64,000 nucleotides of DNA, taken from Escherichia phage NHEP10. This document shows positions 12,176 to 13,595 of the stretch, in pieces (position 1 is the first letter of the stretch; the number at the start of each line of letters is the position of its first letter). Below the pieces are notes generated by a model. It was not told the DNA's origin and did no database searches. It saw nothing but the letters and a program-made list of their open reading frames with translations. The stretch lies in the sequence record PQ511148.1; one strand, written 5' to 3'. The position numbers and the translations under genes were made by a program.

Positions 12176-13595
12176 TTATGGATATGTATAGATGATACCA
12201 GTTTCCAAAGCAGTTTTATGGATGATGTATCCATTACGTGATTCTTGAACATCAACTTCCGGATAATCTTTCATCATCTTCTGAAGTGTGTAACGATGCA
12301 AGTAGTACTTACTATCTGGATCTTCAGTTTTCCAATCTTTACCTTCTTCAGCCATTTTTTGGATTTCATCCATAACCCACCATCCGCACCAGATGTAAGC
12401 TGAAGTACGATGTGGAAGAGGATGAACATAAGGTAGTTCACCTTCTGGTTCTGGAGCAACTTTATCAGTTACCTGAACTTGACCTTCTGCTGTAATAGTT
12501 TTGCTATCGTAATCAGTTGCAGTAATAGTTGCAGTAACTTCAATAGTTTGACTTCCAATAGATGAGGTATCAACCGTGTATACATTAGTTGACCCTTCTA
12601 CTGGAGAAGAATCTTTCTTCCACGAGTAAGTAATTTGTGCTGCGTCAGGTGCGCCAGTAACATTAGCAGTAAATGTAGCCGAAGCATCTTGTTGAACATT
12701 AATAGAAGGAGGAGTCAATGTAACCTGTGGATTCATTGTCTTCTTATTAACCGTTAATGATACTTCATTCGAAGTAACTTCCTTTGCATCATAATCTGTC
12801 GCGGTTACTTGGGCTACACACTTAATTTTTTTTAACTCCACTTGTAGTTGGAGTATAGCTAAATGTAGAGTTAGTTTCTCCACCAACCTGTGAATCATCT
12901 ACATACCACTGATACGTAGCAGACGCTCCAGCCGGTTGAGAAGCTAAGGCAGCAGTAAATTGAACTGGGGTTCCAATTACTCCGGCTGAAGGACTATTAG
13001 GAGTTACTGCCAACGTAGTTGTCTGTGTCTTTTTATTAACAGTCAGTGACACTTCATTAGAAGTAACGCTTAGTGCGTCATAATCTGTTGCTGTTACTTG
13101 AGCTACACACTTGATTTTTTTAACTCCGCTTGTGGAAGGAGTGTAATTGAATGTAGCGGAAGTTGCTTCGTCTACAGGAGAACCGTCAACGTGCCATTGA
13201 TAAGTAGCGTTTGCGCCTGATGGCTGCGAAGCTAAAGCGGCGGTAAATTGAACCGGCGTTCCAATTACTCCAGCGTCAGGGCTATTAGGAGTTACAGCTA
13301 AGGTAGTCGTTTGTGTCTTGTTTTGAACTGTGATAGTTGTAGAAGCTTCTGCTGTTTCAGCTTCAGCTTCTGGAACTGTATTTGTTGCAACTACTTTAAT
13401 AGTCTTTTGACCGGCAGGTCCTTTTAGTACATAACTAAAAGTTGCTTCAGCTCCATCTTGTGGAACATCATTTACAGTCCAAGCATATGTAATAGTTCCA
13501 CCTCCAGTTTCACCACTGGGAGTAGCAGTAAACTGCTTAGTCTGATCTATAACTCCGGTAGGTGTTTTAGGAGTTATATCAACTGTAAAAGCCAT
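12176..13595 (-). pseudogene. hoc: hoc (highly immunogenic outer capsid protein) interrupted by a +1 frameshift in an A8 run; four Ig-like domains plus capsid-binding C-terminal domain
   Basis: Two overlapping ORFs (12822-13595 and 12176-12898) join at AAAAAAAA (plus-strand T8, 12826-12833); the paralogous repeat at 13129-13135 has T7 and is in frame; C-terminal YIWCGWW-type capsid-binding region. Confidence 0.75.
12816..13380 (-). repeat. diverged tandem duplication (two ~285-bp units) encoding near-identical Ig-like domains inside hoc
   Basis: Protein repeats TQTTTLAVTPNSP(D/S)AGVIGTPVQFTAALASQP...KKIKCVAQVTATDYDA occur twice in tandem. Confidence 0.8.

Follow-up and report, generated by a model that had tools for sequence, protein, structure and literature searches.

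Among the closest described counterparts of the gene considered here is hoc of phage T4, which encodes a head decoration protein of 376 amino acids (aa; structures PDB 5vf3 chain Z and 8t1x). Proteins of this type are characterized by a single copy at the centre of each hexamer of the major capsid protein. The C-terminal domain of Hoc binds the capsid (PMC10385173, PMC9958956), homologues with 1 to 10 immunoglobulin (Ig)-like domains have already been reported (Fokine et al. 2023, PMC10385173), and the protein is non-essential in the laboratory (PMC9958956, PMC10385173). In T-even phages, variants with one base more or less at homopolymers of at least 6 bases account for ~3e-4 of reads and revert fast (bioRxiv 10.1101/2025.10.21.683753). 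Here, we analyze hoc in a 64,000-nt stretch of Escherichia phage NHEP10 (sequence record PQ511148.1; the whole stretch is referred to as the window), where the gene (12176..13595, minus strand) contains a run of eight A (A8); with seven (A7), its product would be 472 aa long. We read the eighth A as a recent, probably genuine A7-to-A8 slippage mutation that would give rise to Hoc-less virions, and consider this reading slightly better than an even bet (roughly 0.55); the ranking draws on indirect evidence. Sequence comparisons show the lesion itself, its absence from close relatives, repeated frameshifts at this tract in other phages and the integrity of the remaining gene. From the evidence we infer that the extra A resides in the DNA itself and not just in the base-calling, that it arose by slippage, and that the virions lack Hoc.

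How does this locus compare with its described counterparts? After repair of the frame, residues 1-134 of the window's Hoc align with residues 1-134 of T4 Hoc (PDB 5vf3_Z) and residues 189-472 with residues 93-376 (E=8.5e-236), so that the N-terminal 134 and the last 284 residues match end to end. The gene neighbourhood, too, is that of T4, with inh upstream and 24.3, 24.2 and rnlB downstream. The window's gene differs, however, by a diverged second copy of domain 2 (96 aa, 288 bp) and by the frameshift, whereas T4 encodes VKRIK at this position and its A run is interrupted. The four-Ig Hoc of phage JN02 is closer still: it likewise comprises 472 aa, is collinear with the repaired protein and shares the A7 tract at the first of two paralogous sites. 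It differs at the second site, where JN02 has A7 in place of A8 and its gene is intact.

The split hoc gene

The window derives from a T4-type coliphage of the genus Mosigvirus, similar to JS09 and JN02, and its first 25 kb share 98-99% identity with phages Ec3-ASingh, JN02, TU01 and JS09. Two overlapping open reading frames (ORFs) on the minus strand make up its hoc locus. The N-terminal ORF (12822..13595) encodes 257 aa ending in ...TTSGVKKN* and spans the Ig-like domains D1 and D2 as well as most of D2', the second copy of D2. The C-terminal ORF (12176..12898; 240 aa as listed) contributes the rest of D2', domain D3 and the capsid-binding domain; its first 22 residues are an out-of-frame read-through of D2', and the true Hoc frame begins at ..KKIKCVAQ (about 12826 downwards). 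Within the overlap of the two ORFs, the sequence reads A8 (plus-strand T8, 12826..12833), the longest coding homopolymer of the 64 kb. At this tract, the upstream frame proceeds through GGA GTT AAA AAA AAT TAA, and the Hoc frame resumes one base later as ATT AAG TGT GTA, which places the downstream part in the +1 frame.

Removing a single A creates an ORF of 1419 nt and 472 aa that contains no further stop or indel and whose product is collinear with JN02 Hoc (QNI20668.1), with 12 of 472 residues differing. Apart from their shift into the +1 frame, the C-terminal 217 codons are thus untouched. The split is a deterministic feature of the sequence, for which chance is not at issue. As written, hoc does not form a single uninterrupted ORF joining its Ig domains to the capsid-binding domain, and the locus as written is a pseudogene or null allele.

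Sequence, fold and synteny assign it to the Hoc family: both ORFs are matched by the PHROG 'Hoc-like head decoration' family, the repaired protein aligns with T4 Hoc, and the order uvsW / inh-hoc-24.3-24.2-rnlB is conserved, with hoc oriented as inh. Both the identity of the gene and a +1-type break at A8 had been proposed in a first-pass annotation of the window, and are borne out by these matches, by the two ORFs and by the one-A repair, respectively.

Domain architecture

The first-pass annotation had also described four Ig-like domains, one of them an extra tandem copy. In line with this, the alignment to T4 Hoc, Pfam and a structural model of a homologue agree on D1 (13320..13595, aa 1-92; T4 alignment and AlphaFold model), D2 (13032..13319, aa 93-188; repeat and T4 alignment), D2' (12743..13031, 289 nt with the extra A, aa 189-284 after repair; repeat and T4 alignment) and D3 (12467..12742, aa 285-376 after repair; Pfam, T4 alignment and AlphaFold model), all encoded on the minus strand. 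They are followed by the capsid-binding domain (12179..12466, minus strand; aa 377-472 after repair), which aligns to T4 Hoc 281-376 with few substitutions and without gaps, the C-terminal ORF being matched by PHROG Hoc families. Pfam detects a PKD domain in Hoc at 49.5 bits (cutoff 23.5), while Ig_3 and I-set score close to threshold. For a 472-aa homologue of 95% identity, the AlphaFold model displays four beta-sandwich segments (pLDDT about 90) and a helical C-terminal domain of low confidence, and finds its best fold matches in the PDB among four-Ig strings such as Dscam1 and ICAM-5 D1-D4. On that model, the frameshift maps to the start of a long late beta-strand in the third sandwich (E253-265). 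Accordingly, the 257-aa product is predicted to comprise two complete Ig domains and an incomplete third, and to have no capsid-binding domain.

By alignment, the window's Hoc is T4 Hoc plus a second copy of Ig-like domain 2. The tandem repeat spans 12737-13319 with 2.0 copies and 76-77% nucleotide identity; while its duplicated and diverged nature had been recognized beforehand, the period measures 288 bp rather than the proposed ~285 bp. At the protein level, D2 and D2' are identical at 81 of 96 positions (84%). Against D2 of a T4-length (376-aa) hoc allele, D2' is 91.7% and D2 78.8% identical, making D2 the more diverged copy. The A7 tract occurs twice in hoc because the Ig domain has been duplicated. 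An in-frame A7 in the neighbouring repeat had been correctly predicted, yet lies 14 nt from the position given for it: the tract (GTT AAA AAA ATC AAG) occupies 13115..13121 on the minus strand, and the proposed 13129-13135 reads CTTGTGG.

Compared across phages, the additional domain is extra relative to T4 only, the 472-aa form being common in both Mosigvirus and Tequatrovirus. Protein databases hold Hoc in length classes of 376, 472 and 567-570 aa, with intact proteins dominating and the 472-aa form represented by dozens of clusters from the two genera. The 376- and 472-aa forms differ by an exact, in-register unit of 96 codons, as expected from unequal recombination. Contigs whose Inh is identical to that of the window carry hoc genes of 182, 372, 376, 472 or 567 aa, and in the 182-aa variant, domain 1 is joined straight to the capsid-binding domain. 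This spread indicates that the Ig-domain repeats of hoc may be gained and lost rapidly, and some cases could reflect assembly collapse of the tandem repeat. A 58-member cluster of Hoc proteins carries the name 'endonuclease [Shigella sonnei]'.

The tract in related phages

The first-pass annotation had suggested a comparison with related phages. Searching with a 121-nt query across the tract returned 429 matching phage records, and A8 was found in none of the best 60, which were all one base shorter and in frame. JN02 has A7 at both of its tracts, whereas the closest relative, Ec3-ASingh, bears an interrupted GTA AAA AGA ATT (V-K-R-I) at the site of the window's A8, and T4 and many relatives show the same interruption at one or both sites. 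Since the tract is in frame in relatives, a conserved recoding signal is excluded; its frequent interruption, in turn, argues against its maintenance for the sake of mutability.

Exact matches to the 257-, 240- and 186-aa products or to the repaired 472-aa protein were absent from a collection of 15 billion proteins, in which the Inh control was present. Complete E. coli genomes gave no match. The pattern GGAGTT-A6(+0-3)-TYAARTG returned 30 loci in IMG/VR (two real hoc, the rest chance matches) and no hoc among the at least 120 loci listed from JGI metagenomes, being too loose for collections of such size. As a control, the A7 run of the essential DNA-ligase gene (28075-28081) was engineered to A8 in the query, which retrieved A8 in 0 of the best 25 of 149 records; the control has too little power, as a frequency of only near 1% is to be expected.

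Frameshifts at the hoc tract do recur elsewhere, namely in about 1% of roughly 660 hoc-containing records. Phage vB_EcoM_FN (MZ170041.1) has the exact GTT-A8-TT and a split hoc. Over the 3.1 kb compared, its sole difference from the sibling vB_EcoM_F1 (MT682712.1) is T8 versus T7 at this tract, the genomes measuring 168411 and 168410 nt, respectively; the pair resembles a single phage sequenced on two occasions or after passage, one version having its hoc switched off. Phage vB_EcoM_ACG-C40 (JN986846.1) harbours A8 at the tract and two annotated 'Hoc' coding sequences (CDS), with rnlB disrupted as well, and in a metagenome scaffold of 166 kb, it is the paralogous first tract that reads A8.

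The T-even phages T6 and T2 are affected, too. Two independent records of T6 (AP018814.1 and MH550421.1; about 106.7-107.8 kb) share the same +1 lesion, a one-base insertion (GGAGTTAAAAAGAATT versus GGAGTAAAAAGAATT in T4) that turns the tract into GTT AAAAAGAA TT, one base longer, and lets the N-terminal fragment end in ..SGVKKN*. The curated record MH550421 leaves hoc unannotated. The identical insertion in two independent genome records suggests that T6 is probably Hoc-less. In T2 (NC_054931.1, 105460-106600), hoc lacks 11 nt in domain 1, reads A6 at the GVKKIK tract and has lost another 2 nt close to its 3' end; given these three lesions, it is an old pseudogene, which the RefSeq annotation presents as two short 'Hoc-like head decoration' CDS.

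In T6, T2, FN and ACG-C40 alike, the break falls at the same codon position as in the window (the K/R between ..SGVK and IKC..). FN and ACG-C40 have the window's A8, and the N-terminal fragments of T6 and FN end in ..SGVKKN* as does that of the window. Unlike the window's gene, however, all four are three-Ig Tequatrovirus alleles, the T6 tract is not a pure A8, and T2 has A6 together with its two further deletions.

Further deviating records include MZ234025 and MZ234041, both with A6 at the tract, and ECCR664, which has one base deleted at the tract, a second deleted at a downstream A6 and several homopolymer frameshifts, and is probably a poor assembly. MZ234025.1 (Mosigvirus) and MZ234041.1 (Tequatrovirus) stem from the same study and have in common an identical 119-nt hoc segment that includes the A6 frameshift, and PM105 additionally shows a T6-type +1 at the first tract; recombination between co-cultured phages or cross-contamination could account for this. 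A T4-type hoc segment is also found inside MG010123.1 'Staphylococcus phage SAJK-IND', a record that is likely mislabelled or contaminated.

Mutation or artefact?

Three explanations for the split had been offered in the first-pass annotation: a sequencing or assembly error, a genuine inactivating mutation and slippage-prone phase variation. All three stay relevant, and the comparisons rank genuine mutation above error and leave evolved phase variation unsupported, the tract not being conserved. The window's gene is the common four-Ig, 472-aa allele with one extra A in the GTT AAA AAA ATT of D2'. Most likely, the phage replicase slipped on the homopolymer and so added the base, and the mutant would then have been fixed through a bottleneck such as plaque purification, which the dispensability of Hoc in the laboratory would permit. 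With all 217 downstream codons intact, the lesion would be very recent and revertible by a single-base slip.

The behaviour of other homopolymers in the window speaks to the alternative of an artefact, in which the phage truly has A7 and its hoc encodes all 472 aa uninterrupted, the eighth A being a homopolymer miscall or an error of assembly or polishing. Only seven homopolymers of at least 7 bases exist in the window. When A/T runs of at least 6 with a mapped counterpart in JN02 or Ec3 were compared in length, differences were present in 5 of 8 non-coding runs (10481-10488, 16100-16105, 16141-16147, 24398-24403 and 39896-39902, each by one base relative to JN02/Ec3-ASingh), but in just 1 of 29 coding runs, that of hoc (Fisher p=7e-4). 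The other 28 coding runs, three A7/T7 among them, match the relatives. Homopolymer length polymorphism is thus common where selection allows. That coding runs are spared while non-coding runs vary favours real slippage filtered by selection, as instrument errors would hit both. Moreover, where the window aligns to its relatives at 96-99% identity (about 1-30 kb and 32-46 kb), no second frameshifted gene was seen, and real frameshifts at the very same tract are documented in T2 and in the two independent records of T6. A genuine mutation is further favoured by the one-base variants reported for T-even homopolymers, by the dispensability of Hoc in culture and by the position of hoc ahead of a terminator, where polar effects are not expected.

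Several observations nevertheless weigh against a genuine mutation. Being the longest coding homopolymer, A8 is the likeliest site for a base-calling or polishing error. The tract is one base shorter in all of the close relatives inspected, the rest of hoc is pristine, and the A8 allele is neither confirmed nor contradicted by any independent assembly in the protein collection. The sporadic differences of one base in public records come in part from error-prone entries (ECCR664, for example, and perhaps ACG-C40 with its disrupted rnlB), so that some of the database examples may themselves be errors, and FN and F1 resemble one phage sequenced twice that differs at precisely this base. Finally, a rough estimate puts the neutral chance that a mutant of this kind becomes fixed during isolation at only about 1e-3. 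An artefact is therefore plausible, if less probable in our view than a genuine mutation.

A contingency locus?

Could the tracts instead have been kept as a switch? If so, the A7 tracts of the duplicated domain would constitute a contingency locus, maintained because it switches the display of Hoc very frequently and so hedges between virions that are decorated, immunogenic and able to adhere to mucus or surfaces and virions that are bare, and the window would have captured the OFF phase. Such a role would be compatible with the independent A6, A8 and +1 alleles that no fewer than 7 phages carry at this tract, and with the fact that two of the window's four coding runs of at least 7 bases belong to hoc. 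A recent preprint describes homopolymers of at least 6 bases in T2, T4 and T6 as reversible hypermutable sites (bioRxiv 10.1101/2025.10.21.683753), and Hoc mediates adherence to glycans and mucus and is selected in a mucosal model (PMC9271167). As in established contingency loci, the coding region contains simple-sequence repeats (A8, A7) in which a change by plus or minus one base shifts the frame.

The tract is not maintained across relatives, however, as T4 and many others have the interrupted version. In addition, Lys-Lys-Ile is all that it takes to produce A7 where the genome is AT-rich and AAA is the preferred codon, and the further decay of T2 hoc looks like loss and not like switching. 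The nearest described parallels are the run in T2 agt (gene positions 288-296) and the A6 of T4 rIIA (Gomez, Barrick and Waters, bioRxiv 10.1101/2025.10.21.683753), likewise A tracts in conditionally dispensable T-even genes in which a slip by one base inactivates the gene and can revert. Reversibility and a selective trade-off were measured for agt and rIIA; the preprint's main text does not discuss hoc. Since these measurements concern other genes and the hoc tract lacks conservation, we do not file hoc as an evolved phase-variable gene and deem it highly unlikely that the window represents the OFF phase of a dedicated switch.

The broader proposition, that the A7 in each copy of Ig domain 2 serves T-even phages as an on/off switch for capsid decoration, with slippage seeding Hoc-minus and Hoc-plus subpopulations, is quite unlikely as well. 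If true, adherence to mucus or surfaces and immunogenicity would be traded for free diffusion or for lower costs of production; the broken hoc genes of T2, T6, FN, ACG-C40, the gut or environmental scaffold and the window would be snapshots of the switch; and recombination of the tandem repeat (182, 376, 472 and 567 aa beside an identical inh) would add a second, length-tuning layer. The present evidence does not show that the tract was selected for a contingency role. Yet the repeated hits in T2, T6 and field isolates make hoc a convenient natural test case for the idea of homopolymer contingency in phages.

Expression from the A8 allele

Can the A8 allele still make Hoc? Full-length protein would require programmed recoding, either by transcriptional slippage yielding A7 or A10 mRNA or by +1 ribosomal frameshifting on AAA AAA AAU UAA. 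After a +1 shift, Lys-tRNA is able to pair with AAA again, a property that would assist the latter, yet AAU, the A-site codon in the zero frame, is not known to be slow and the RNA structure around A8 is not exceptional (z=-1.0), slippery though A8 itself is. As for transcription, runs of 8-9 A can support frame-restoring slippage of RNA polymerase, and the documented cases of Thermus thermophilus dnaX and Shigella mxiE similarly join out-of-frame ORFs by a long A run (Baranov et al. 2005, PMC1088944). In those cases, however, the runs are conserved and at least 9 long, and such sites are conserved among orthologues in general; the hoc run has 8, and its orthologues are uninterrupted. Furthermore, slippage of E. 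coli RNA polymerase on A/T runs produces almost exclusively +1 insertions, with homopolymer deletions below 1% (PMC5574713), while rescue of hoc calls for a one-base deletion, the rare direction, or a two-base insertion. Programmed frameshifting and translational bypass are hence rejected in view of non-conservation, the lack of notable RNA structure and the rare slippage direction; recoding is extremely unlikely, and full-length Hoc from this allele is to be expected in traces at the very most.

Re-initiation at Met287 (MNPQ...), giving a 186-aa mini-Hoc of D3 and the binding domain, might occur at trace level, but this start codon has no Shine-Dalgarno motif and lies about 85 nt downstream of the stop.

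Implications

Known things meet here in a new instance: a Hoc allele with four Ig domains and, on our reading, a frameshift by slippage in a T-even gene that the phage can do without. The locus does not reveal a new mechanism. Its practical bearing is on annotation and use. The gene should be labelled as a frameshifted hoc (a pseudogene or null allele) or flagged for resequencing, as several public records mislabel such a split hoc as two 'capsid and scaffold' or hypothetical proteins. Whether about 155 Hoc fibres are present bears on Hoc-based display, mucus adherence, aggregation and immunogenicity, and the homopolymer therefore needs checking before the phage is employed in therapy or display.

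Genomic neighbourhood

Upstream of hoc and in the same orientation lies inh (13605..14273, minus strand), encoding the inhibitor of the prohead protease. As the two genes are only 9 nt apart, hoc is probably co-transcribed with inh. Its AAGGA ribosome-binding site (13602..13606, minus strand), read directly from the sequence, overlaps the inh stop codon. Directly past the hoc stop codon, the sequence shows an intrinsic-terminator-like hairpin (AAGGGGCTTCGGCCCCTT) followed by a T-rich tail (12154..12171, minus strand). With hoc being the last gene before this terminator, a polar effect of the frameshift is not expected.

In the control region (14280-14330) between inh/hoc and the divergent uvsW, an exact T4 late-promoter motif (TATAAATA) for uvsW occupies 14287-14294 of the plus strand; upstream of inh, the minus strand has just a near match (AATAAATA). 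Downstream, rnlB (RNA ligase 2; 10514-11512) encodes 332 aa in the window and 335 aa in JN02, and contains a short rearranged patch at about 11240-11251 with a net difference of 9 nt that keeps the frame.

Further away, the long-tail-fibre region (about 49100-59800) is 74-84% identical to JN02, compared with 94-99% in its flanks, a divergence that looks like the exchange of a host-range module. Additional stretches diverged from the relatives are located near 30.3-32.2 kb of the window. Many T4-like phage contigs were located within assemblies of E. coli and Shigella.

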